From Firmicutes bacterium HGW-Firmicutes-21 (GTDB taxonomy: Bacteria > Bacillota > Clostridia > Oscillospirales > CAG-382), in contig PGZT01000001.1 of the NCBI GenBank assembly GCA_002841455.1, positions 81,919-137,921 of the forward strand: a stretch of 56,003 nucleotides of DNA, read 5' to 3'. The stretch's first letter is position 1, and each line of letters opens with the position of its first letter. The translations under genes and the position numbers were made by a program. Shown one piece after another: positions 16,823-32,087 of the stretch. Under the pieces are notes generated by a model. It did no database searches. It saw only the letters and a program-made list of their open reading frames with translations, and had not been told where the DNA came from.

Positions 16823-18016
16823 ATGTTTGTTTTGGTTGTAAACGCAGGGAGCTCGTCGCTTAAATATCAGCTTTTTGATATGGATACCAAAGAGGTGATG
16901 GCAAAAGGACTCTGCGAAAGGATTGGTATTGACGGAAAGCTCAAGCATCAAACCTCGGGCAATCCGATGATTATAAAGGATATTCCGATGCCGACACACG
17001 CACAAGCGGTTTCGGCTTTAGTAGAGAGCCTTACCGATAAGGAGATCGGATGTATTTCCGACATGAGCGAGATTTCGGCTGTCGGGCACAGAGTCGTTCA
17101 CGGAGGCCCTTGGCTGACAAAGAGTGTACTTGTAAACGAGAGCGTTATCGCAGACCTTGAGAAATGCTGTGATATTGCGCCTTTGCATACGGTTCCGCAC
17201 CTTCTGGGTATAAGAGGCTGCATTCAGATAATGCCTAAAACCCCGCAGGTGCTTGTTATTGACACCGCTTTTCATCAGACAATGCCGGAATACGCATATA
17301 TGTATCCCATTCCTTACGAGATTTACGAAAAGCACAAGATTCGCCGTTACGGCTTCCACGGAACCTCGCATCGTTATGTTTCCGAAAAAGCGACCGAGCT
17401 TTTGGGAAAAGCACCGGAGGACACCAAAATAGTCACCTGCCACCTCGGTAACGGCTCCTCTGTAGCCGCCATTAACGGAGGCAAGGTTGTGGATACCAGC
17501 ATGGGCTTTACGCCTCTTGAGGGGCTTATTATGGGCTCTCGCTGCGGTGCCGTGGACCCTGCGATAATTCCTTTTCTTATGGAAAAGGAGGGTATTTCCG
17601 TCTCGGAGATAATTGTTTGGCTTAACAGAAAATGCGGCTTCCTCGGGGTCTCGGAGGTTTCGAGCGATTTGAGAGAGGTTATGGATGCTATTGATAAAGG
17701 CAACAAAAAAGCAAAGCTTGCATATGATATACTTTGCTATCAGATAAAAAAATATGTAGGAGCATATGCGGCGGCGATGAACGGCTTGGATTGCGTGGTG
17801 TTTACCGCCGGAATAGGCGAAAACAACCATTTTATACGCTATGACAGCCTCAGTAATATGGACTATCTCGGCATAAAGATTGATAAGGATAAAAACGAAC
17901 ATAAAAACGCCTGCGAAATAAGCACGGATAATTCGGCTGTAAAGGTTTTCGTTATCCCGACAAACGAGGAGCTTGTTATCGCAACCGACACGGAGGAAAT
18001 CGTAAGCAAGCTGTAA
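16823..18016 (+). CDS. ackA: Acetate kinase
   Basis: NAGSSSLK, GHRVVHGG, DTAFHQT, RRYGFHGTSH, CHLGNGSS, TSMGFTPLEG, FTAGIGEN, IPTNEE. Confidence 0.99.
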   Translation: MFVLVVNAGSSSLKYQLFDMDTKEVMAKGLCERIGIDGKLKHQTSGNPMIIKDIPMPTHAQAVSALVESLTDKEIGCISDMSEISAVGHRVVHGGPWLTKSVLVNESVIADLEKCCDIAPLHTVPHLLGIRGCIQIMPKTPQVLVIDTAFHQTMPEYAYMYPIPYEIYEKHKIRRYGFHGTSHRYVSEKATELLGKAPEDTKIVTCHLGNGSSVAAINGGKVVDTSMGFTPLEGLIMGSRCGAVDPAIIPFLMEKEGISVSEIIVWLNRKCGFLGVSEVSSDLREVMDAIDKGNKKAKLAYDILCYQIKKYVGAYAAAMNGLDCVVFTAGIGENNHFIRYDSLSNMDYLGIKIDKDKNEHKNACEISTDNSAVKVFVIPTNEELVIATDTEEIVSKL

Positions 18017-18047
18017 AAAGATACACATATATACGGGAAGAATGAAT

Positions 18048-18080
18048 AAGTCCGAAGTAGTTCAAACCTACTTCGGACTT
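18048..18080. terminator. Terminator between convergent ackA and GSIII
   Basis: 13-bp perfect stem AAGTCCGAAGTAG/CTACTTCGGACTT. Confidence 0.85.
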
Positions 18081-18131
18081 TAACTTTATCGTTTTAGGTA
18101 TTTTCCCTAATATTTACACGGCGTTGCTTTT

Positions 18132-20234
18132 CTATACAGAATAAAGAATCTCGCCGTATGTGGGGAAGGGCCAGTACTTGGCTCCCACGAGTGTCTCAAG
18201 CTCATCTGCCGTGGCACGGAACTCCTGCATCTCGGCAAGAACCGTTTCCTTGTAGAACATTGCGTGTGCTGCTGTGTTACCGTTCTTATCGCCTGCCGAG
18301 ATAAGTGTTTTTTCTAACAAATCCGCCTTTTTAAACAATATGGAGGCAAGCCTGCCAAGCTTCTCCGCAAGTGCGACCTCGCTGTCGTCGGAAATATCTA
18401 TTCCTATCTCCTTTTTAGCTTTTGCCGCTCCCGCAAGCATCTTTCCGTATTCATAAACTGCGGGAAGAATGTCCTTGCGAACCATATCAAGCATTGTAAG
18501 CGCCTCTATGCTGATTACCTTGCAATAATTCTCGAGCAGCAGCTCGCAGCGGGAATGAATCTCAGCCTCGGTGAAAATCTTGTGCTTTGTAAACAGCTTG
18601 ATATTCTTCTCGCTGACAAAGTACGGGAGTGCCTCCGGTGTGCTCTTGAGGTTGAGCAACCCGCGTTGCTTTGCTTCAGCAACCCACTCTTTTGCATAAT
18701 TGTTGCCGTTGAAGATAATCCTTTTATGCTTAATAACGGTCTCCTTGATAAGAGCATCGACTTCCTTATTAAAATCGGATGCTTTTTCAAGACGATCGGC
18801 AAACTCGGACAGAGCCTCCGCAACTATGGTGTTGAGTATTATGTTCGGACCCGATACAGAAAAGGTCGAGCCGAGCATACGGAACTCGAATTTATTCCCC
18901 GTAAAAGCAAAGGGAGAGGTGCGGTTTCGGTCGGTGGTGTCCTTTTTAAAGTCGGGAAGAACATGGATTCCCGTCTGCATTGTATTAGCCTTGGTACAGT
19001 TATATTCGCAGCCCTTCTCTATTGAATCGAGTATTGAGGTCAACTCGTCTCCCAGGAATATGGACACGATTGCGGGAGGAGCCTCGTTAGCGCCGAGACG
19101 GTGGTCGTTACCCGCACTCGCAACGGAGATACGGAGCAAATCCTGATGCTCGTCGACCGCTTTTATAACAGCCGCAAGGAAGAGCATAAACCGTTTATTC
19201 TCTATCGGGTTTTTACCCGGCTTAAACAGATTTACACCGGTATTTGTGGCAAGCGACCAATTGTTATGCTTGCCGCTTCCGTTTACTCCGGCAAAGGGCT
19301 TCTCATGAAGCAGACACGCCATACCGTGCCGCTCGGCGACCTTTTTCATCATCTCCATGGTGAGCTGATTATGGTCGGTGGCAATGTTTGCGGTTGTATA
19401 AATAGGCGCAAGCTCGTGCTGTGCGGGAGCAACCTCGTTATGCTCGGTTTTTGCGAGTATTCCTATCTTCCACAGCTCCTTGTTAAGGTCCTGCATAAAC
19501 GCCATTACTCTGGGTCTTATTGAGCCGAAATAATGGTCCTCAAGCTCCTGTCCCTTGGGCGGCTTTGCGCCGAAAAGGGTTCTGCCCGAGAAACGGAGGT
19601 CCTTACGCTTGAGATAGCAACCCCTGTCGACAAGGAAGTATTCCTGCTCCGGACCGACCTCGGAGGTTACATGTGTTACAGCACTGTCTCCGAACAATTG
19701 CAAGACACGGCACGCTTGAGTGCTTATAACCTCCATAGAGCGGAGAAGGGGCATCTTTTTATCCAGAACCTCGCCGCTGTAGGAGCAGAAAATTGTGGGT
19801 ATGCATAGAGAGTTATCCTTTATAAACGCATATGAGGTAGGATCCCATGCGGTATAGCCTCTTGCTTCAAAGGTAGCTCTTAAGCCGCCGGAGGGGAAGG
19901 AGGAAGCATCCGGCTCGCCTTTTATCAGCTCTTTTCCGGAGAACTCCATAATAACCTTGCCGTCAGCCTGCGGAGATATAAAGCAGTCGTGCTTCTCGGC
20001 GGTAATGCCGGTCATGGGCTGGAACCAATGTGTATAATGAGTTACGCCTTTTTCGAGAGCCCAATCCTTCATCGCGGTTGCTACACTGTTAGCAACGGTG
20101 ATATCAAGATCGTTACCCTCCTCTATTGTTTTTTTGAGTGATCTGTATATTTCCTTAGGCAGCTTCTCTTTCATAACAGAGTCGCTGAAAACAAGTGAGC
20201 CGTAGATCTCCGGCACTTTCGAGTCGTTAATCAA
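18132..20234 (-). CDS. glnN: Glutamine synthetase type III
   Basis: 700 aa; [80 protein letters not shown]. Confidence 0.97.
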
Positions 20235-20270
20235 ATTTATCGTCCCTCCGATTACAATTGTATATTTAGT

Positions 20271-21278
20271 TTATAAAAGTTCGATACCGGCGGCGGAACA
20301 AATACTCTTTGTCTCGCTGTCCCAAATGGATACCTGAACCTCGCCTATATGAGCTTTTCCGAGCAGCAGCATACAGAACCTCGATTGTCCGATTCCGCCG
20401 CCTATAGAGAGCGGAAGAGTTCCGTCCAATAACAGGCTGTGGAACATCATGCTCTTTCTGTCCTCCGCACCCGCTGCGGCGAGCTGTGTCTCAAGTGAAG
20501 CGCTGTCAACACGGATACCCATCGAGGAAACCTCAAAAGCCATGCCGAGCAGCTCGTTCCAGAATATTATATCACCGTTGAGTTCCCAATCGTCGTAATC
20601 GGGAGCGCGGCCGTCGTGCTTAATGCCGGACTTGAGCTTTCCGCCTATCTTCATTACAAAAACCGTTTTATGTATTTTTGTGTAAGCGTCTTCTCTCTCT
20701 CTCGGGGTGAGGTCGGGATACATATCCTCAAGCTCCTGTGTGGTTACAAAGCTGACCTGATCAGACATCTCTGTGGTAAGCTGCGGAAAGAGCTGCTTAA
20801 TGTAAGCGTTTGTGTCGCACATAGCCTTGACTTCACTGCGGACAATTTCCTTCAGGAAATCAATATTCCGTTGCTGTGCGGTGATAACCTTTTCCCAGTC
20901 CCACTGATCCACATATATGGAATGCAGATTGTCCATAATCTCGTCTCTGCGGATTGCGTTCATGTCCGTATAAAGACCCTCGCTCACCGGGAAACCGTAT
21001 TTATACAGTGCATAACGCTTCCATTTTGCAAGCGAGTGAACAACCGCTCCGTCGGTTTTGGCATCGGCTATATCAAACGACACCGCGCGTTCCGTACCGT
21101 TAAGGTCATCATTCAAACCGGTTGCAGGCTCTACGAACAGCGGAGCCGAAACTCTCTTTATGTTCAGAGCCGCACTCAGCTTATCCTCGAAGCTTCTTTT
21201 AATTATACCGATTGCCATCTGTGTTTCGTAAAGGGACAAAACAGGTTTGTAATCTTTTGGAATAAGAGTTTTGCTCAT
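20271..21278 (-). CDS. asnA: Aspartate--ammonia ligase (asparagine synthetase A)
   Basis: GLNDDLNG, VHSLAKWKR, YVDQWDWE, HDGRAPDYDDW, SSMGIRV, GGGIGQSR. Start is ATG 21278 or 21284. Confidence 0.97.
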   Translation of the reverse strand: MSKTLIPKDYKPVLSLYETQMAIGIIKRSFEDKLSAALNIKRVSAPLFVEPATGLNDDLNGTERAVSFDIADAKTDGAVVHSLAKWKRYALYKYGFPVSEGLYTDMNAIRRDEIMDNLHSIYVDQWDWEKVITAQQRNIDFLKEIVRSEVKAMCDTNAYIKQLFPQLTTEMSDQVSFVTTQELEDMYPDLTPREREDAYTKIHKTVFVMKIGGKLKSGIKHDGRAPDYDDWELNGDIIFWNELLGMAFEVSSMGIRVDSASLETQLAAAGAEDRKSMMFHSLLLDGTLPLSIGGGIGQSRFCMLLLGKAHIGEVQVSIWDSETKSICSAAGIELL

Positions 21279-21300
21279 TTTCATACCGCCTTTTCTGTTT

Positions 21301-21356
21301 AATAATAAAATAGCAAAAGCACTGCGGGCAAGAATTTCCCACAGCGCCTTTGCTGT
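21301..21356 (-). promoter_or_regulatory. ANTAR-type attenuator in the asnA-glnN leader
   Basis: Hairpin ACAGC-AAAGGC-GCTGT (cf. ANTAR motif AGCAANGRRGCY) overlaps the 5' arm of a 17-bp terminator (AGCAAAGGCGCTGTGGG/CCCGCAGTGCTTTTGCT) followed by ATTTTATTATT. Confidence 0.75.
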
Positions 21357-21365
21357 ATGCAAGGT

Positions 21366-21394
21366 ATTATAAACCTTTTTTTTTACCTTGTCAA
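21366..21394 (-). promoter_or_regulatory. Consensus sigma-A promoter of asnA-glnN
   Basis: TTGACA-N17-TATAAT on the minus strand. Confidence 0.9.
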
Positions 21395-21444
21395 TACCTT
21401 TTGTAAAAAAAAATCCCTCCGGCGGAATTTTCGGTTAAAAAGGG

Positions 21445-21473
21445 TTGACAAAATACATTTTTGTTTGTATAAT
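21445..21473 (+). promoter_or_regulatory. Consensus sigma-A promoter of the glutamate synthase operon
   Basis: TTGACA-N17-TATAAT. Confidence 0.9.
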
Positions 21474-21480
21474 GCTGTTA

Positions 21481-21552
21481 GGACAAAGGTGTCTGACATA
21501 TTAACGCAGAGGGCTATATATTTGTGTTATCATGTCAGGCACCTTTTTTATT
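21481..21552 (+). promoter_or_regulatory. ANTAR-type attenuator in the glutamate synthase operon leader
   Basis: Hairpin GGAC-AAAGGT-GTCT overlaps the 5' arm of a long terminator (AAAGGTGTCTGACAT/ATGTCAGGCACCTTT) followed by a T tract. Confidence 0.7.
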
Positions 21553-21577
21553 CAATTATAATATAGGAGATATAAAT

Positions 21578-22684
21578 ATGTTAAGAGAAGGAACGAACGG
21601 ATACAGAATACCTGCCGGCTGCGCTATCTCGGGTATTTTTTCCAAGGAAGGTAAGCGTATCAGCGGCGAAAACATTATTAAATCCATCGGACTTATGCAC
21701 GAGCGTTCAAACGGCTTGGGCGGCGGATTTGCCGGATACGGAATTTATCCGGAATACAAGGACCTGTACGCATTCCATATATTTTATGATAATTTTAAAG
21801 CAAAGGACGAGTGCGAGCATTTTCTGGACCGTCATTTTGATATTGTAAATCTGTCAAAGATACCCACAAAAAAGATACAATCGATAACCAACGAGCCTCT
21901 TATATGGCGTTATTTTGTAAAGCCGTTGCCGACCAAGCTCGCAGACAGTCAGCTTGACGAGGACGAGTTCACAGCCCGTTCGGTTATCAAGGTTAATGTT
22001 AAGATAGAAGGAGCTTATATATTCTCAAGCGGAAAGAACATGGGCGTTTTTAAAGCGGTCGGTTATCCGGAGGATGTCGGCGAATTTTATAAATTGGATC
22101 AGTACGAGGGATATTGCTGGACCGCACACGGCAGGTATCCGACAAACACGCCGGGCTGGTGGGGCGGAGCCCATCCCTTCGCCCTGCTCGGCCTATCTAT
22201 AGTGCATAACGGCGAGATTTCTTCTTATGACGCAAACCGTCGATTTATCGAGATGTTTGGATATAACTGTACATTGCTGACCGATACGGAGGTTATTACA
22301 TATATTATAGATTATCTGTGCCGCAAGCAGGGATTAACAATAAAGGAAGCCGCCGAGGTCATTGCCGCTCCGTTCTGGAAGACAATCGACAAAAAGGACG
22401 AGAAGGACAGGGAGAGGCTGACCTATCTTCGCAACACCTTTGCGAGCCTGCTGATAACAGGACCTTTTTCTATACTTGTCGGCTTTGACGGCGGAATAAT
22501 GGCTCTTAATGACAGGCTCAAGCTGCGCTCTATGGTTGTAGGCGAAAAGGATGATACCGTGTACATTGCGAGCGAGGAAAGCGCCATCCGACTTATAGAG
22601 CCTAATCTTGACAGAGTTTTTGCTCCCAAGGGCGGCGAGCCGGTTATATACACCTTTAACGAGCGAATTAATTCCGAAAGATAA
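21578..22684 (+). CDS. Class II glutamine amidotransferase subunit of a split glutamate synthase (GltB1-like)
   Basis: Ntn nucleophile context GCAISG after a short propeptide; ERSNGLGGG, HGRYPTNT, AHPF, VHNGEI, TDTE, DRLKLR. AGGAG RBS before ATG 21578. Confidence 0.9.
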   Translation: MLREGTNGYRIPAGCAISGIFSKEGKRISGENIIKSIGLMHERSNGLGGGFAGYGIYPEYKDLYAFHIFYDNFKAKDECEHFLDRHFDIVNLSKIPTKKIQSITNEPLIWRYFVKPLPTKLADSQLDEDEFTARSVIKVNVKIEGAYIFSSGKNMGVFKAVGYPEDVGEFYKLDQYEGYCWTAHGRYPTNTPGWWGGAHPFALLGLSIVHNGEISSYDANRRFIEMFGYNCTLLTDTEVITYIIDYLCRKQGLTIKEAAEVIAAPFWKTIDKKDEKDRERLTYLRNTFASLLITGPFSILVGFDGGIMALNDRLKLRSMVVGEKDDTVYIASEESAIRLIEPNLDRVFAPKGGEPVIYTFNERINSER

Positions 22685-22821
22685 ATTTTTCAAATACGGT
22701 TTTGTGCCTTGTCTGCAAGAGGTGCAGTCATTTGTATTTCATACAAAACGGCACAATTCCCGCTCATTGCCGAAAGATATAGTTTTAATCTAAAAAATCC
22801 ACATAGTTAGGAAGATTTGTT

Positions 22822-24327
22822 ATGTCAATTGATTTTATATATCCCGAATACGAAATAGCGAGAAACAAAGATCGCTGTATAAACTGCCGTGTCTGCGAGA
22901 AACAATGCGCAAACGAGGTACATAAATACCACGCAGACCTAAAAATGATGCAGGCTGACGACCTTAAATGCGTCAACTGTCAGCGTTGTGTATCGTTATG
23001 CCCTACAAGAGCGTTAAAGATTGTAAAAACGGATAATACATATAAGGAAAACGCTCATTGGAAGGGACGCACCATGTCCGAGATTTATCTTCAGGCAGGA
23101 AGCGGCGGCGTTTTGCTTTCCTCGATGGGAAACCCTGTCGATTACCCTATTTACTGGGATAAAATACTTATAAACGCCTCACAGGTAACAAACCCCTCCA
23201 TTGACCCGCTCAGAGAGCCTATGGAGACCAGAACCTTTCTCGGACAACGCCCTAACAAAATCGAGAGAGACAAGGACGGCAACATTGTAAACAATATGGC
23301 TCCTCAGCTGGAGCTGTCCACACCGATTATGTTCTCCGCAATGTCCTACGGCTCAATCAGCTACAACGCACACGAGAGTCTTGCGAGAGCGGCTACGGAG
23401 CTGGGCATATATTATAACACGGGAGAGGGCGGACTCCACGAGGATTTCTACAAATACGGAGCAAACACAATTGTTCAGGTAGCTTCGGGACGGTTCGGCG
23501 TACATAAGGATTACCTAAACGCAGGAGCCGCCGTCGAGATAAAAATGGGACAGGGTGCAAAGCCGGGTATCGGCGGACACCTGCCGGGCGCTAAAATTGT
23601 GGGTGATGTGTCAAGGACCAGAATGATACCCGAGGGGTCCGACGCAATTTCACCCGCTCCTCATCACGATATTTATTCCATCGAGGATTTACATCAGCTT
23701 GTAATGTCGCTTAAAGAGGCGACCAATTATACAAAACCCGTTATCGTAAAGATAGCGGCGGTGCATAATGTTGCAGCGATTGCGTCGGGAATAGCCCGCA
23801 GCGGAGCGGATATTATATCGCTCGACGGCTTCAGAGGCGGAACAGGTGCCGCTCCGACAAGAATCAGAGACAATGTGGGTATTCCGATAGAGCTTGCGCT
23901 GGCAAGCGTTGATAAGCGGCTTCGTGACGAGGGAATAAGGAACAATGTGTCGCTTGTTGTGGGCGGCTCGGTAAGAAGCAGCGCGGATGTCGTAAAGGCG
24001 ATTGCTCTTGGTGCGGATGCGGTTTATGTTGCGACCAGCGCATTGCTTGCTCTCGGTTGTCATCTTTGCAGGAGTTGCCACGGCGGTAAATGCAACTGGG
24101 GAATAGCAACACAACGGGCTGATTTGGTAAAAAGACTTAACCCGGAAATAGGATATAAACGGCTTGTCAACCTTGTCGAGGCTTGGACACATGAGATAAA
24201 GGAAATGATGGGCGGTATGGGCATTAACTCAATCGAAGCCCTGAAGGGCAACAGGCTTATGCTCAGAGGCGTGGGGCTTAACGAGAAGGAGCTCGAAATC
24301 TTAGGCATCTATCACGCAGGGCAATAA
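22822..24327 (+). CDS. FMN-binding subunit of a split glutamate synthase with an N-terminal 2x[4Fe-4S] domain (GltB2-like)
   Basis: Two CxxCxxCxxxC motifs; AMSYGS, NTGEGG, QVASGRFGV, EIKMGQGAKPGIGGHLPG, SPAPHHDIYSIEDL, and a [3Fe-4S] Cys motif. Confidence 0.95.
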   Translation: MSIDFIYPEYEIARNKDRCINCRVCEKQCANEVHKYHADLKMMQADDLKCVNCQRCVSLCPTRALKIVKTDNTYKENAHWKGRTMSEIYLQAGSGGVLLSSMGNPVDYPIYWDKILINASQVTNPSIDPLREPMETRTFLGQRPNKIERDKDGNIVNNMAPQLELSTPIMFSAMSYGSISYNAHESLARAATELGIYYNTGEGGLHEDFYKYGANTIVQVASGRFGVHKDYLNAGAAVEIKMGQGAKPGIGGHLPGAKIVGDVSRTRMIPEGSDAISPAPHHDIYSIEDLHQLVMSLKEATNYTKPVIVKIAAVHNVAAIASGIARSGADIISLDGFRGGTGAAPTRIRDNVGIPIELALASVDKRLRDEGIRNNVSLVVGGSVRSSADVVKAIALGADAVYVATSALLALGCHLCRSCHGGKCNWGIATQRADLVKRLNPEIGYKRLVNLVEAWTHEIKEMMGGMGINSIEALKGNRLMLRGVGLNEKELEILGIYHAGQ

Positions 24328-24379
24328 AACCCGAACGAGGCTTGGCTTATATAAAAAATTCCGAAGGGATAAATAATTG

Positions 24380-24838
24380 ATGAAACGAATTATAGTAAAC
24401 GAAAAATGGTGCTTGGGCTGCCGCCTATGCGAATATAACTGTGCTTTCGCAAATTCTGGGAGCATCGGTACGACACCGCTCGATATGGCAAAAGCGCTTA
24501 AGGATATTGTAATAAACCCCCGAATTAAGATAGAAGAAAAGGACGACATCTGCTTTGCGGTATCCTGCCGACATTGCAAGGAGCCTCTCTGCGTCAAGAG
24601 CTGTATAACGGGTGCGCTGACAAGGGTTGACGGCGTTATCCGCATAAACAAAGAGAAATGCGTCGAGTGCCACACCTGTGTGCTCGTATGCCCCTACGGC
24701 GCAATTATGCCGAGCGACGAGGGTGTTATGCAGAAATGCGAGCTTTGTGTACAGAACACGGGAGGAGAGCCGTTCTGCGTTAAGGGCTGTCCGAACAAGG
24801 CGATTGAATTTAAAGAACTTGGAGGGGATTCGGTATGA
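24380..24838 (+). CDS. 4Fe-4S dicluster (four-cluster) electron transfer protein
   Basis: CLGCRLCEYNC, CRHC..PLC..SC, CVECHTCVLVCP, KCELC...CVKGCP. Confidence 0.92.
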   Translation: MKRIIVNEKWCLGCRLCEYNCAFANSGSIGTTPLDMAKALKDIVINPRIKIEEKDDICFAVSCRHCKEPLCVKSCITGALTRVDGVIRINKEKCVECHTCVLVCPYGAIMPSDEGVMQKCELCVQNTGGEPFCVKGCPNKAIEFKELGGDSV

Positions 24839-26082
24839 AATATGTGATTATAGGTAACTCGGCGGCGGCAATAGGCTGCATTGAGGGTATAAGAAGCGTT
24901 GATTCTCAAGGGAGCATTACCGTTATCTCAAAGGAAACACAGCATACATATTCCCGTCCGCTCATATCCTATCTTCTGCTTGGTAAAACCGATTCGGAAA
25001 GAATGAAATACCGAAGCGATAATTTTTATGAAGAAAACAACTGTACCGTAATGTTCGGTACGGAGGTAACAAAAATATCTCCCGATAAAAAAGAGGTTCT
25101 GCTCGATAACGGAAAAAGCGTGAAGTACGATAAGCTGCTTGTCGCAACGGGCTCAAACCCCTTTGTTCCCCCGATAGAGGGAGTAAGCACCGCAAAAAGC
25201 GTACATACTTTTATGTCGCTCGACGATGCGCTTGCTCTGGAAAAGGATTTGACGCCGGACAGCAGGGTAATTATTCTCGGCGGCGGACTTATCGGTCTGA
25301 AATGTGCGGAGGGAATTCTTAAATCCGTTAAAAAGATTACCGTTATTGATATGGCTGACAGGATTCTGCCAAGCATACTCGATTCCGAGGGCTCTTCGAT
25401 AATACAAAAGCACCTTGAATCCAAGGGTATAGAGTTTCTGCTCGGAAACAGCATTTCCAAGGTTGACGGACAGAGAGCGATTCTAAAAAGCGGAGATATA
25501 ATCGAGTTCGACAGCCTTGTAATCGCCGTCGGAGTACGGGCGAATACCGCACTTGTGGCGGAGGCGGGCGGAACAGTAAACAGGGGAATTTACACTGATT
25601 TGAGCTGTAAAACAAGCCTTCACGACATATATTCGGCGGGTGACTGCAGCGAGAGCTACGACATTACCATAGGGCAGCCGAGAGTGCTTGCGCTTTTGCC
25701 TAACGCATATATGCAGGGCGAGGTTGCCGGAGTAAATATGGCAGGCGGAGATATGCTTTATGACCACGCCATACCTATGAATGCCATCGGTTTCTTTGGG
25801 CTGCATGTTATATCGGCGGGCAGCTACGAGGGTGAGTGCTACACCGTAGCAGAGGGAAACAACTATAAGAAGCTGTTTTACAACGACAATAACCTTTTCG
25901 GATATATTCTAATCGGAGAGGTTGCGAGAGCGGGTATTTATACGGCTCTGATTCGTGAGAAAACACCTCTCGACAGCATAGATTTTGAGCTTATCAAGGA
26001 TAAGCCGCAGCTTATGGCCTTTACAAAAAAGGACAGGGCGGCGCTGCTTATAAAGGAAGCTCTGCCAGACAATTGGCAATAA
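24835..26082 (+). CDS. FAD/NAD(P)-dependent pyridine nucleotide-disulfide oxidoreductase (likely reductase for the glutamate synthase)
   Basis: IIGNSAA, ATGS, GGGLIG, IYSAGD; ATGA overlap with the upstream gene. Confidence 0.9.
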   Translation: MKYVIIGNSAAAIGCIEGIRSVDSQGSITVISKETQHTYSRPLISYLLLGKTDSERMKYRSDNFYEENNCTVMFGTEVTKISPDKKEVLLDNGKSVKYDKLLVATGSNPFVPPIEGVSTAKSVHTFMSLDDALALEKDLTPDSRVIILGGGLIGLKCAEGILKSVKKITVIDMADRILPSILDSEGSSIIQKHLESKGIEFLLGNSISKVDGQRAILKSGDIIEFDSLVIAVGVRANTALVAEAGGTVNRGIYTDLSCKTSLHDIYSAGDCSESYDITIGQPRVLALLPNAYMQGEVAGVNMAGGDMLYDHAIPMNAIGFFGLHVISAGSYEGECYTVAEGNNYKKLFYNDNNLFGYILIGEVARAGIYTALIREKTPLDSIDFELIKDKPQLMAFTKKDRAALLIKEALPDNWQ

Positions 26083-26107
26083 ATAATAAGTATAAGGGAT
26101 TGGTATT

Positions 26108-26755
26108 ATGGAAAGAAACTGTATGGGCGAAAGGTATCTGGGCTGCGGCAGTGCGGGAGAGAGGATTATCCTCAACGGAACCCCCGGCAACGCACTCGGC
26201 GCATATCTTGACGGCTCGGAAATAATAATAAACGGAAACGCACAGGACGCTACGGGCGATACCATGAACGGCGGAAGCATAACCATCCACGGCAGCACCG
26301 GGGATGCTTGCGGTTATGCGATGCGCGGCGGCGAGATTTATGTCAGAGACAGTGCGGGCTACCGTGCCGGTATCCATATGAAGGCATATAAAGAGAAGCT
26401 GCCGGTGCTTGTAATCGGCGGCAGAGCGGGCAGCTTCCTCGGCGAATATCAGGCGGGCGGAATTATCATCGTACTCGGACTCGGCTTTGAGGGCAAGAGC
26501 GTGGTGGGATATTTTTGCGGAACGGGTATGCACGGAGGCAAGATTTATCTCCGCACAGAGGAGATGCCGCAGGACCTTCCCGAGCAGGTTATGGTCCGTC
26601 TTGCCACGGAAGAGGATATGAAGGATATCGACAGATATATTACAAGCTATTCGGAAAAGTTCGGGGTAAATAAAGAGGATATAACAAGCAGCGGCTTCTA
26701 TGTCTTGACTCCAAACACAAAAAATCCTTACAAAAGGCTTTACTGTTATAATTAA
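26108..26755 (+). CDS. GXGXG beta-helix subunit of a split glutamate synthase (GltB3-like)
   Basis: Repeated GxMxGG units (GDTMNGG, GYAMRGG, GEYQAGG, GTGMHGG); AAGGGA RBS. Confidence 0.9.
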   Translation: MERNCMGERYLGCGSAGERIILNGTPGNALGAYLDGSEIIINGNAQDATGDTMNGGSITIHGSTGDACGYAMRGGEIYVRDSAGYRAGIHMKAYKEKLPVLVIGGRAGSFLGEYQAGGIIIVLGLGFEGKSVVGYFCGTGMHGGKIYLRTEEMPQDLPEQVMVRLATEEDMKDIDRYITSYSEKFGVNKEDITSSGFYVLTPNTKNPYKRLYCYN

Positions 26756-26839
26756 TTGGTGTATAATAGCAGTGTTATGAGGGTTATAAAGGTTAAACCC
26801 TTAACAAGCCGTTTCGCCGGCGAGAAACGGCTTTGTTTT
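26739..26839 (+). promoter_or_regulatory. sigma-A promoter, leader hairpin and terminator upstream of the GS-like/ANTAR pair
   Basis: TTTACT-N17-TATAAT (26739-26767); hairpin AGGGTT-ATAAAGGTTA-AACCCT; terminator AAGCCGTTTC/GAAACGGCTT followed by TGTTTT. Confidence 0.55.
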
Positions 26840-26878
26840 ACATTGTGTATTTTACAACCGGAGAAACGGACGAGGCAT

Positions 26879-28114
26879 ATGTTTTACACCGATAATGAGG
26901 TAATTGATTTTATAACGGAGAACGATGTTAAGTTTATCCGTCTTTCTTATTGCGATATTTACGGAGTACAAAAGAATATATCAATTATGCCGTCGGAGCT
27001 TAGACGAGCGTTCAGGGACGGAATATCCTTCGACGCTTCGGCTGTACGGGGCTTTGGCGACGAGGTAAGGTCGGATTTATTGCTGTTCCCCGATCCGTCG
27101 ACCCTCGCTCTTTTACCCTGGAGACCGTCACACGGCAGAGTTGTGCGGTTTTTTTGTGATATAAAGCATCCCGACGGCAGAACCTTTGAGATGGACAGCC
27201 GTCATATATTGAAAAAGGCGGTCCGCTATGCGGCGGGCAGGGGTTATACGGTCAGCTTCGGTGCGGAATGTGAGTTTTATCTTTTCAAGTGCGATGCGGA
27301 GGGAAACCCCACCGACATTCCCTTTGACAACGCCGGGTATATGGATGTTTCCCCGCTTGACAAGGGCGAGAATGTAAGACGGGAGATCTGTCTTACGCTT
27401 GAGGAAATGGGTATTATCCCCGAGGCCTCTCATCACGAGGAGGGACCCGGACAAAATGAGATTGATTTCAGATACAGCGAGCCGCTTGTCTCCGCCGATA
27501 ATGTTACAACCTTTAAGTGGGTTGTGAAAACGGTTGCGGCGAGAAACGGACTGTTTGCCACCTTTGACCCTAAACCGATTCCGGACAAGAGCGGAAACGG
27601 CTTCCATATAAATATGGCTCCCAAGCTAATCGGCGGAGTAACCGAGCAGGCTGTGTATGACAGCTTCATGGCGGGTGTTCTCGACCGTGCGGCGGAGCTA
27701 TGTGCTTTTCTTAACCCGACAGAGGCATCCTTCCTCCGTTTGGGAGAGAATAAAGCACCCAAATATATTACCTGGTCCGAGCAGAACCGCTCACAGCTGA
27801 TAAGAATACCTGCCGGAGACGGCGAATACAAGCGTATCGAGCTGCGTTCTCCCGATTGCAGAACCAATCACTATATCGCATATGCATTGCTTATATATGC
27901 GGGCATGGAAGGCATTGAGAATAAAAAAGTCCCACCCGTTCCGATTGACCTAAATCTTTACAAAGCGGATAAGGAGATTATAGATAAGCTAAGCAAGCTG
28001 CCCGAGAGTCTTTCCGAGGCTGTCGAGATAGCCTGCCGCAGCGAATTCATCGGCAGAGTGCTGCCCAAGCGGGTAGCCGAGGCGTATAATCCGCTTTACG
28101 AGAAGCAGGAATAG
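26879..28114 (+). CDS. Glutamine synthetase type I-like protein (flap Glu missing, C-terminally shortened)
   Basis: FDASAV, ECEFYLF, HHEEGPGQNEIDF, GNGFHIN, NRSQLIRIP and RIELRSPD are present, but RLGENKAP replaces RLVPGYEAP. About 411 aa. Confidence 0.85.
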   Translation: MFYTDNEVIDFITENDVKFIRLSYCDIYGVQKNISIMPSELRRAFRDGISFDASAVRGFGDEVRSDLLLFPDPSTLALLPWRPSHGRVVRFFCDIKHPDGRTFEMDSRHILKKAVRYAAGRGYTVSFGAECEFYLFKCDAEGNPTDIPFDNAGYMDVSPLDKGENVRREICLTLEEMGIIPEASHHEEGPGQNEIDFRYSEPLVSADNVTTFKWVVKTVAARNGLFATFDPKPIPDKSGNGFHINMAPKLIGGVTEQAVYDSFMAGVLDRAAELCAFLNPTEASFLRLGENKAPKYITWSEQNRSQLIRIPAGDGEYKRIELRSPDCRTNHYIAYALLIYAGMEGIENKKVPPVPIDLNLYKADKEIIDKLSKLPESLSEAVEIACRSEFIGRVLPKRVAEAYNPLYEKQE

Positions 28115-28125
28115 GGGGCGTTGGT

Positions 28126-28713
28126 ATGTTGTTCGGTAAAACGCCGTACAGCGTGCTGGTCGTTTCGAGCGGAGAAAAAATTAACGATTTTCTAAACGAG
28201 GTTCTTGGGTCAAATATGTACTCGCCCGTCATATTCACAAAAAACGGGGGGGAGGCAAGAAACATTCTTATATCACAGAGCTTTGACCTTGTTATAATAA
28301 ACTCCCCTCTTAGTGATGAATTCGGCAGCGAGCTTGCCTTTAAGCTCACCGAAAATGCGGTATGCGGTGTAATAATGATTATAAAAAGCGATGTGTTCGA
28401 CGAGGTCAGCGAACGGGTTGAGCAATACGGAGTTCTTGCGGTGAGCAAGCCGATTTCCCGTGTGCTTTTCTTGCAGATTCTGAAAATATCCATCGCTACT
28501 CTCGAGCGGTTGAAAAGGCTTGAGCGGGAAAATAAAAAGTTATCGTTTAAAATAGAGGAAATAAGGCTTATTGACAGAGCAAAATGGGTTCTTATAGAGT
28601 ATCTGAAAATGAGCGAGCCGCAAGCGCACCGATATATCGAAAAACAGGCTATGGATATGCGGATAACACGGCGTGAGGTTGCCGAGAGCATTATAAAAAC
28701 ATATGAAAATTAG
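28126..28713 (+). CDS. ANTAR-domain antiterminator with a pseudo-receiver domain (NitR/AmiR-like)
   Basis: C-terminal IDRAKWVLIE...MSEPQAHRYIEKQAMDMRITRREVAE. N-terminal receiver fold reads VLVVSS ... DLVIINSP ... SKP. Confidence 0.92.
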   Translation: MLFGKTPYSVLVVSSGEKINDFLNEVLGSNMYSPVIFTKNGGEARNILISQSFDLVIINSPLSDEFGSELAFKLTENAVCGVIMIIKSDVFDEVSERVEQYGVLAVSKPISRVLFLQILKISIATLERLKRLERENKKLSFKIEEIRLIDRAKWVLIEYLKMSEPQAHRYIEKQAMDMRITRREVAESIIKTYEN

Positions 28714-28736
28714 TTGCTTTTCATATGTTTTTATAA
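28691..28736. repeat. 19-bp perfect inverted repeat spanning the ANTAR gene stop codon
   Basis: TTATAAAAACATATGAAAA-N8-TTTTCATATGTTTTTATAA. Confidence 0.85.
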
Positions 28737-28846
28737 AAGAAAAGTCCTTAAAAGTCAGAGTGACCTTCAGTTATCTTCGGTAAAAACGGACTTTTCCGTT
28801 GGTAATTTTCCATATACGATATTCATAATTTAAAAACAAAAAAGGT

Positions 28847-28875
28847 TTGACAAGAACGGTTTTTTGCTGTAGATT
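28847..28875 (+). promoter_or_regulatory. sigma-A promoter of guaA-pyrG-nadE
   Basis: TTGACA-N17-TAGATT. Confidence 0.6.
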
Positions 28876-28906
28876 TATAAGATAAGATTTATTAAGGAGA
28901 AAATAT

Positions 28907-32087
<3,181 letters not shown>

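Follow-up and report, generated by a model that had tools for sequence, protein, structure and literature searches.

Single-hexaloop leaders of nitrogen-assimilation operons as candidate ANTAR antitermination sites in Clostridia

In the literature surveyed here, the RNA targets of ANTAR proteins are dual hairpins. EutV, AmiR, NasR, NasT and Rv1626 are all described in this way (table in PMC12591593; PMC10783516; PMC3369936), as the first-pass annotation of the DNA treated here had stated for EutV, NasR and AmiR, and by definition such a target consists of two tandem hairpins, P1 and P2, with a short linker. In their hexaloops A1 and G4 are essential, and the pair that closes the loop matters by its identity and not merely by its pairing (PMC3369931, PMC7496416). 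In the account of Walshe et al. (2022; PMC8934654), P1 is the recruitment hairpin and P2 the antitermination hairpin, the EutV dimer engages a single hexaloop at any one time, and the minimal ANTAR motif is one hexaloop. Here we describe two divergent leaders that carry a single hexaloop hairpin each, at the predicted start of the transcript and with no P1/P2 pair. They lie in a stretch of 56,003 nucleotides (nt) from Firmicutes bacterium HGW-Firmicutes-21 (contig PGZT01000001.1, positions 81,919 to 137,921; hereafter the window), between the gene asnA and the operon of a split glutamate synthase. The cis-regulatory element that they represent is real, conserved and widespread. It is probably a naturally occurring ANTAR antiterminator with one hexaloop only, and the protein acting on it would belong to a subfamily of pseudo-receiver ANTAR proteins whose genes are linked to glutamine synthetase (GS), a reading that we draw from sequence comparison.

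That ANTAR proteins are associated with a nitrogen regulon in Firmicutes is already known. Table S2 of Ramesh et al. (2012; PMC3369931) gives as ANTAR-linked a GS gene together with an ANTAR gene, glutamate synthase, asparagine synthase, and an ammonium transporter with PII, and the regulons predicted in that paper are those of Desulfotomaculum, Carboxydothermus, Alkaliphilus and Clostridium thermocellum (amtB). These matches were defined by a dual-hairpin model and later searches also require dual stem-loops (PMC8164766), criteria that the leaders of the window would fail. NitR of solventogenic clostridia and Clo1313_2030-2036 of C. thermocellum are further cases in which an ANTAR gene resembling a response regulator is linked to GS and glutamate synthase (GOGAT) and antitermination in response to nitrogen has been proposed; the passage that presents them describes no RNA target (PMC4676874). 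No prior description of single-hairpin ANTAR leaders of nitrogen genes was found in our literature search, the scope of which left out the older clostridial papers on NitR and GlnR.

Two divergent leaders and their counterparts at amtB

The gap between the start of asnA (21284, minus strand) and the start of the first split glutamate synthase gene (21578, plus strand) is 294 nt long and contains two promoters placed back to back. The elements of the two leaders are as follows, in positions of the window.

21445..21473, plus strand: promoter of the glt operon leader; TTGACA 21445-21450, 17-nt spacer, TATAAT 21468-21473, 12/12 match
21481..21494, plus strand: putative antiterminator hairpin; GGAC/GUCU, 4 base pairs (bp), hexaloop AAAGGU at 21485-21490, C-G closing pair
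21485..21549, plus strand: predicted intrinsic terminator; outer helix 21485-21499/21532-21546, inner helix 21502-21510/21521-21529, U6 at 21544-21549
21366..21394, minus strand: promoter of the asnA-glnN leader; TTGACA 21394-21389, 17-nt spacer, TATAAT 21371-21366, 12/12 match
21340..21357, minus strand: putative antiterminator hairpin; UACAGC 21357-21352, hexaloop AAAGGC 21351-21346, GCUGUG 21345-21340, 6 bp, C-G closing pair
21308..21354, minus strand: predicted intrinsic terminator; 17-bp helix 21354-21338/21328-21312, then the U-rich tail UUUUGCUAUUUU

Both promoters had been taken for perfect consensus at first pass, and each does match TTGACA-N17-TATAAT at 12 of 12 positions; within 18000-29000 these two are the only such sites. 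The plus transcript is predicted to start near A21480, from the usual distance of ~7 nt to the promoter, and the minus transcript near 21359/21358. The claim of one AAAGG(C/U) hexaloop hairpin close to each predicted start also stands, as the stems begin 7 nt (plus) and 8 nt (minus) past the -10 boxes. An A-run followed by GG is seen ahead of both -35 hexamers, each on its own strand (21395-21444; AAAAAGGG-TTGACA on the plus and ACAAAAGGTA-TTGACA on the minus strand); it occurs in relatives of the same genus too and may be an UP-like element.

Folding of both leaders bears out the proposal that the loop and 3' arm of each hairpin form the 5' arm of a long terminator. The plus terminator is two-tiered, extends over 21485-21546 ahead of the U6 run and folds at -32.9 kcal/mol (z -5.96), the minus terminator folds at -32.1 kcal/mol (z -4.42), and in both cases no shuffle out of 200 reached the energy of the native sequence. 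Ahead of the start codon and behind the promoter both leaders thus have a stable, G+C-containing stem-loop followed by a U-run, as is expected of an intrinsic terminator or attenuator. Because the hairpins alone are worth only ~-3.5 kcal/mol (plus) and ~-5.6 kcal/mol (minus) against the much stabler terminators, termination would be the default state.

The same build is found on another contig (C28) at the sole ammonium transporter gene of the genome, which encodes an AmtB-PII fusion. Its leader (L002 1328-1452) consists of a promoter, a CAGC-AAGGGU-GCUG hairpin and a terminator, and downstream of this first attenuator there is a second one with a CAC-AACGGC-GUG hairpin, the two standing in tandem ~64 nt apart. 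Tandem attenuators of this kind were also observed at loci L010, L014 and L017. The ANTAR signature letters A1 and G4 are present in all four loops, AAAGGU and AAAGGC in the window and AAGGGU and AACGGC at amtB, and, as in ANTAR targets, hairpin and terminator share sequence, the 3' arm of the former overlapping the 5' arm of the latter. Strand specificity through G-U pairs had been claimed for the window leaders and agrees with the folds, which are better in sense than in antisense for the plus leader (-32.9 vs -23.2 kcal/mol) and the minus leader (-29.3 vs -20.5 kcal/mol), as well as for the two amtB attenuators (-24.3 vs -14.4 and -26.0 vs -21.3 kcal/mol); the advantage is 9-10 kcal/mol in the window leaders and 5-10 kcal/mol over all four attenuators.

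Among the closest described systems are the eut leaders of Enterococcus faecalis, which share with the leaders of the window the A1/G4 hexaloop, a sequence-specific closing pair, and a 3' arm that is at the same time the 5' arm of the terminator (PMC3369931, PMC8934654). Unlike the eut leaders, those of the window have one hairpin at the extreme 5' end, without the P1-linker-P2 arrangement, and a long terminator body. Rfam gave no match at gathering thresholds over the whole window, and the sub-threshold candidates of the region (E up to 10), among them PyrR at 27.1 against a cut-off of 54, RefA1 and microRNAs, were rejected as noise far below the cut-off.

Conservation, co-occurrence and the number of hairpins

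The hairpin is nearly constant among relatives. A family sample comprised 121 genomes of the same GTDB family, in 28 of which the first glt gene was found and in 26 of which its upstream DNA was usable. Of these 26 regions, 25 have a hexaloop hairpin of the A..G.. type that is closed by C-G and has 4 bp or more in its stem, and the remaining one has a 3-bp stem. In 23 of the 26 the stem starts 1-12 nt past the -10 box of a near-perfect promoter. A class sample of 301 genomes contained the glt gene in 76; 40 upstream regions from more than 30 families were taken, and one was cut by a contig end, which left 39. Among these the hairpin is found in 28, comprising 24 with A1/G4 beside a consensus-like promoter, three with a G1 loop and one with a UGUAAC loop. 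The loci with deviating loops (L111, L114, L115 and L117; GAAGAU, GAAGGU, GAAGAC or UGUAAC) have them despite an ANTAR ortholog, and keep both hairpin and terminator.

Both helices covary. The first-pass annotation had pointed to a covariance model of homologous leaders as a check, and such a model was built. When 11 sequences are aligned, pairing amounts to 98.2% in the terminator helix, where 6 of 10 pairs show changes in both partners and the score is reached by none of 500 shuffles, and to 96.4% in the hairpin helix. In an alignment of 22 sequences, made with a covariance model from which the hairpin helix was absent, this helix is 97.3% paired with 28 double-change cells, compared with 30-58% in slid controls. 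The minus leader of the window scores 49.4 bits with covariance model R1 and 45.7 bits with R2.

The letters of the loop were assessed with an unconstrained finder, which looked at all loci for a promoter, a hexaloop hairpin and a terminator using the 3' arm of the hairpin, with no condition on the loop letters. It returned 81 elements, of which 66 have A1, 65 have A2, 67 have G4 and 67 have the C-G closure; among the 14 non-consensus elements there are some in which a leader already counted is read in a shifted register. The third letter of the loop varies freely (A 44, U 23, C 8, G 6). In 57 elements the stem begins 6-10 nt past the -10 box, and the median distance from loop to U-run is 43 nt. 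With the recognition letters of the loop and its closing pair held constant and the remaining stem covarying, the conservation fits ANTAR specificity; and since the architecture recurs at amtB and in dozens of relatives with both helices covarying, it is more than chance. Two looser scans were set aside. A hairpin-plus-terminator scan of the genome gave 986 matches without A/G enrichment and was too permissive, so that stricter scanners were used in its place, and an IUPAC pattern of promoter plus loop, with 68 matches against one in the reversed control, was dropped as a motif count. In ANTAR-less genomes all 12 inspected matches of this pattern are without hairpin and terminator; they have Shine-Dalgarno-like or start-codon contexts, with one tRNA leader.

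The element also goes together with ANTAR genes. Pfam ANTAR is above its cut-off in 42 of the 121 family genomes, and the 18 family genomes with R2 matches at E <1e-4 are all ANTAR-positive (18/18, against this background of 42/121). At class level an ANTAR gene is present in 28 of 28 genomes with the glt-leader hairpin (26 by search with the ANTAR protein of the window and two by Pfam), whereas 9 of the 11 genomes whose leader has no hairpin are without a close ANTAR homolog at 1e-20. The relatives are not independent and these counts overstate the statistical weight, but the direction is consistent at two taxonomic depths. Six weaker R2 matches in ANTAR-negative genomes were rejected as ordinary gene-end terminators of the form AAAGGCGC...GCGCCUUU, which lack a proper 5' arm.

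These observations bear on the view that there is no switch at all. The leaders would then hold leaky terminators or insulators between divergent genes, and the hairpin would be a by-product of an A-tract and a terminator, or a 5' stabiliser. The AAAGG ahead of the stem is indeed complementary to the U-run, as in bidirectional terminators, and the weak matches just mentioned show that plain gene-end terminators can resemble the model in ANTAR-less genomes. The 5' arm, however, covaries with the 3' arm in an alignment made without that helix, and conservation is lowest at loop position 3, nearest to the terminator stem, where an A-tract predicts the opposite. In many families, moreover, the elements stand between consensus promoters and the start codons of nitrogen genes, and the strong model matches are confined to ANTAR-positive genomes. 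We regard the absence of a switch as very unlikely.

A second question is whether one hairpin or two are involved. The leaders might be canonical dual-hairpin sites, with the second hexaloop hidden in the terminator, or located upstream if the real start lies further 5'. Every described ANTAR target being dual in the sources at hand (table in PMC12591593; PMC3369931), this has precedent on its side, and in one genus (L009, L011 and L016) the apex of the glt terminator is indeed a C-G-closed AAGGGU or AAGGGA hexaloop, so that a nested two-hairpin form, with P2 as the top of the terminator, is possible there. As a general feature, a cryptic second hairpin inside the terminator, which the first-pass annotation had offered as one of two options, does not hold up. 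An internal A1/G4 hexaloop hairpin of at least 3 bp occurs in just 5 of 59 leaders, without enrichment over the other 15 letter pairs (3-17), and the terminator apex loops are 10 nt and 9 nt in the window leaders and 3 nt in the first amtB terminator, none of them A..G...

The upstream variant fares no better. The stem lies at or within ~2 nt of the predicted start in the window, and the near-perfect promoters 6-10 nt ahead of the stem in the 57 of 81 elements given above agree with the earlier remark that there is no room for a first hairpin. The surroundings of orthologous ANTAR genes (80 named loci, L131-L210) yielded 102 hairpin-plus-terminator elements in 58 loci, 60 of these elements directly behind a promoter. 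Papillibacter cinnamivorans DSM 12816 (L141) and Clostridium methylpentosum DSM 5476 (L144) are among the 80 loci, and leaders were detected in both. An A1/G4 hexaloop hairpin at most 20 nt upstream was found in 7 of the 102; all seven have stems of 3-6 bp without a C-G closing pair, and several run into the -10 box. The 42 elements that are not promoter-adjacent, including the second tandem attenuators, would have room for a partner, yet the partner hairpin is absent. A dual-hairpin site therefore seems to us quite unlikely as the general explanation, and the other option of the first-pass annotation, a single-hairpin ANTAR mode, appears favoured by the A1/G4/C-G signature, the nitrogen-gene context and the co-occurrence with ANTAR genes.

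The regulon, its ANTAR protein and the adjacent glutamine synthetase

The two leaders precede operons of ammonium assimilation, and the putative regulator is encoded at the end of one of them.

18132..21284, minus strand: operon of asnA (aspartate-ammonia ligase, 21284-20271) and a type III GS (glnN, 20234-18132)
21578..26755, plus strand: first part of the glt operon, a split glutamate synthase (Pfam GATase_2, Glu_synthase, ferredoxin-like, pyridine nucleotide-disulphide oxidoreductase, GXGXG)
26756..28114, plus strand: type I GS (Pfam Gln-synt_C 5.3e-84), directly upstream of the ANTAR gene
28126..28713, plus strand: pseudo-receiver and ANTAR protein of 195 aa (Pfam ANTAR 1.6e-17), 11 nt after the GS gene, last gene of the attenuated operon

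Pfam identifies the products of the minus operon as AsnA (7.8e-103) and GSIII_N (1.3e-81), and a terminator-like site follows the operon at 18080-18048. One ANTAR gene was found in the genome (1.55 Mb, 91% complete), and being the last gene of an attenuated operon it is probably autoregulated. A genome scan and the covariance models revealed no further copies of the element, so that the regulon in this genome amounts to three transcription units with four attenuators, all of them for ammonium assimilation and one of them containing the regulator. No attenuator-like element was detected inside the operon: R1 matched only the two leaders in the window, and a simple scan stayed at shuffle level. 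The 137-nt gap between the first two glt genes (22685-22821) contains a 9-bp hairpin at 22702-22727 without a clear U-run.

The protein matches the ANTAR domain (PF03861) at 63.5 bits against a curated cut-off of 27.3, and its nearest solved relatives by phmmer are Rv1626 of M. tuberculosis (1.4e-13) and EutV (6wsh; 1.5e-08). Like EutV it is a receiver-coiled-coil-ANTAR protein of ~190 aa. Its receiver part is degenerate, with a Pfam Response_reg score of 25.6 under the cut-off of 30.2. A Ser-Ser is aligned with the Glu-Asp acidic pair of Rv1626, and Asn59 occupies the place that the Asp has in the DLV(I/L)MD motif of Rv1626 and EutV, by which both the acidic pocket and the phospho-acceptor Asp of a phosphorylatable receiver are missing. 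In EutV, BeF3 density is seen at Asp54 (Walshe et al., PMC8934654); the EutV chain numbering in our alignment is offset by two. His168 takes the place of EutV Tyr164, which stacks on loop G4 in the EutV-RNA structure (PMC8934654). Among 23 homologs of 49-81% identity these replacements, the Ser-Ser included, are conserved; Asn59 is nearly invariant, and His168, Arg151 and Lys153 are invariant. Judged by these residues the protein is a member of a distinct pseudo-receiver subfamily, whose members are annotated generically as 'response regulator NasT' or 'ANTAR domain-containing response regulator'.

The replacement of the phospho-acceptor Asp by Asn implies that control of the protein is probably exerted by a partner and not by a kinase; unlike the case of EutV there is no adjoining kinase gene. 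In 76 of 80 loci the ANTAR gene is immediately preceded, on its own strand, by a type I GS gene, and the pair looks like a sensor-regulator module. The type I GS has many invariant positions across 21 homologs; some of these stretches we take to be typical GS active-site stretches. The arrangement suggests that the adjacent GS is the sensor, and it resembles the control of TnrA and GlnR by GS in Bacillus. By analogy with AmiC-AmiR and NasS-NasT, we infer that this GS, or its state, gates the ANTAR regulator, and consider it the leading candidate partner.

Similar arrangements are known from AmiR/amiE, NasR/nasF and NasT/NalA, where ANTAR antitermination acts on nitrogen-source genes (PMC3369936, PMC7496416, PMC10783516), as is proposed here. 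AmiR is likewise a non-phosphorylated pseudo-receiver controlled by a partner encoded alongside it (PMC3369936). For NasT-NalA a reporter has been used in E. coli as a host without ANTAR genes (PMC10783516). The differences are that the AmiR, NasR and NasT leaders have two hexaloops, that the partners are AmiC or NasS and not the GS that is the candidate here, and that the targets of the present system are GS-GOGAT, asnA and amtB genes.

The adjacency of the two genes gives weight to a third alternative, in which the antiterminator is read by something other than ANTAR. The reader could be another RNA-binding protein, for example the adjacent GS, or inclusion of the 5' arm in the transcript could depend on the start site or on nucleoside triphosphates and so determine the fold. 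The 5' arm is located exactly at the predicted start and would be lost if the start moved by a few nt; co-occurrence does not separate GS and ANTAR in those 76 of 80 loci; and a His stands where EutV has the Tyr that stacks on G4. Against this, the conserved A1, G4 and C-G closure fit the specificity described for ANTAR (PMC3369931, PMC7496416), and the second tandem attenuators have the same hairpin far from any start. ANTAR is, besides, a known hexaloop-binding domain, and no RNA-binding role of GS was met in the literature surveyed. A non-ANTAR reader is in our judgement improbable, although it is the rival that we would dismiss last.

Proposed mechanism and significance

In the mechanism that we propose for a single-hexaloop ANTAR antiterminator, each consensus promoter would fire constitutively. 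The first 15-20 nt of the transcript would fold first, into a weak, C-G-closed hairpin with an AANGRY hexaloop in which A1, A2 and G4 are conserved. Some ~30-60 nt later the 3' arm of the terminator would be made, the hairpin would be displaced and transcription would stop at the U-run. The active ANTAR protein (28126-28713) would bind the lone hexaloop hairpin, lock away the 5' arm of the terminator and block this displacement, which would permit read-through into asnA-glnN, the glt-GS-ANTAR operon or amtB-PII. There would be no separate recruitment hairpin, the single hairpin doing both jobs, and the long terminator body (30-60 nt) would provide the time window for binding and thereby replace pre-recruitment at P1.

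Several points weigh against this mechanism. All ANTAR targets described in the literature cited have dual hairpins (PMC3369931, PMC10783516, PMC12591593). Both hairpins are needed at eutP, mutation of either hexaloop of NalA lowers expression (PMC3369931, PMC10783516), and NasR binds a lone P2 hairpin weakly, at ~12 uM (PMC7496416). Walshe et al. foresee single-hexaloop sites where the transcribing polymerase sets no time limit, as in EutX sequestration, whereas the leaders of the window would use a single hexaloop in a co-transcriptional switch, a case that is not foreseen there (PMC8934654). On the RNA side, loop positions 4-6 also pair in the terminator, which makes their conservation partly structural, and a few relatives have G1 or UGUAAC loops. 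On the protein side, His168 differs from the Tyr164 of EutV in the RNA-binding face, and with ANTAR and GS encoded next to each other co-occurrence cannot tell which of them acts on the RNA.

At a larger scale we lean, by a small margin, towards the view that in many clostridial families the core nitrogen regulon (GS, GOGAT, AsnA and AmtB-PII) is run by the large GS-linked pseudo-receiver ANTAR subfamily, and that its antiterminators have a single hexaloop and occupy the very first nucleotides transcribed from consensus promoters. Should this hold, the recruitment hairpin of the current ANTAR model would be dispensable in nature, the unusually long terminator would take over its role as a timer, and all published dual-hairpin searches would have systematically missed this class. 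In many Clostridia from gut, rumen and environment the element also points to what is likely the master switch for the assimilation of ammonium. The widespread one-hairpin leaders offer a natural test of the revised model of one dimer on one hexaloop, and they raise the questions of whether a recruitment hairpin is needed at all, whether terminator length sets the binding window, and whether the exchange of Tyr for His in the RNA-binding face matters. For annotation of the nitrogen regulon a compact motif and a covariance model are now available. One further leader of similar form was noticed in a metagenome-assembled genome of the Peptococcaceae (L207), where a UGAAC-AAAGGC-GUUCA hairpin upstream of a GS gene is followed by a long terminator and then by an apparent small open reading frame.

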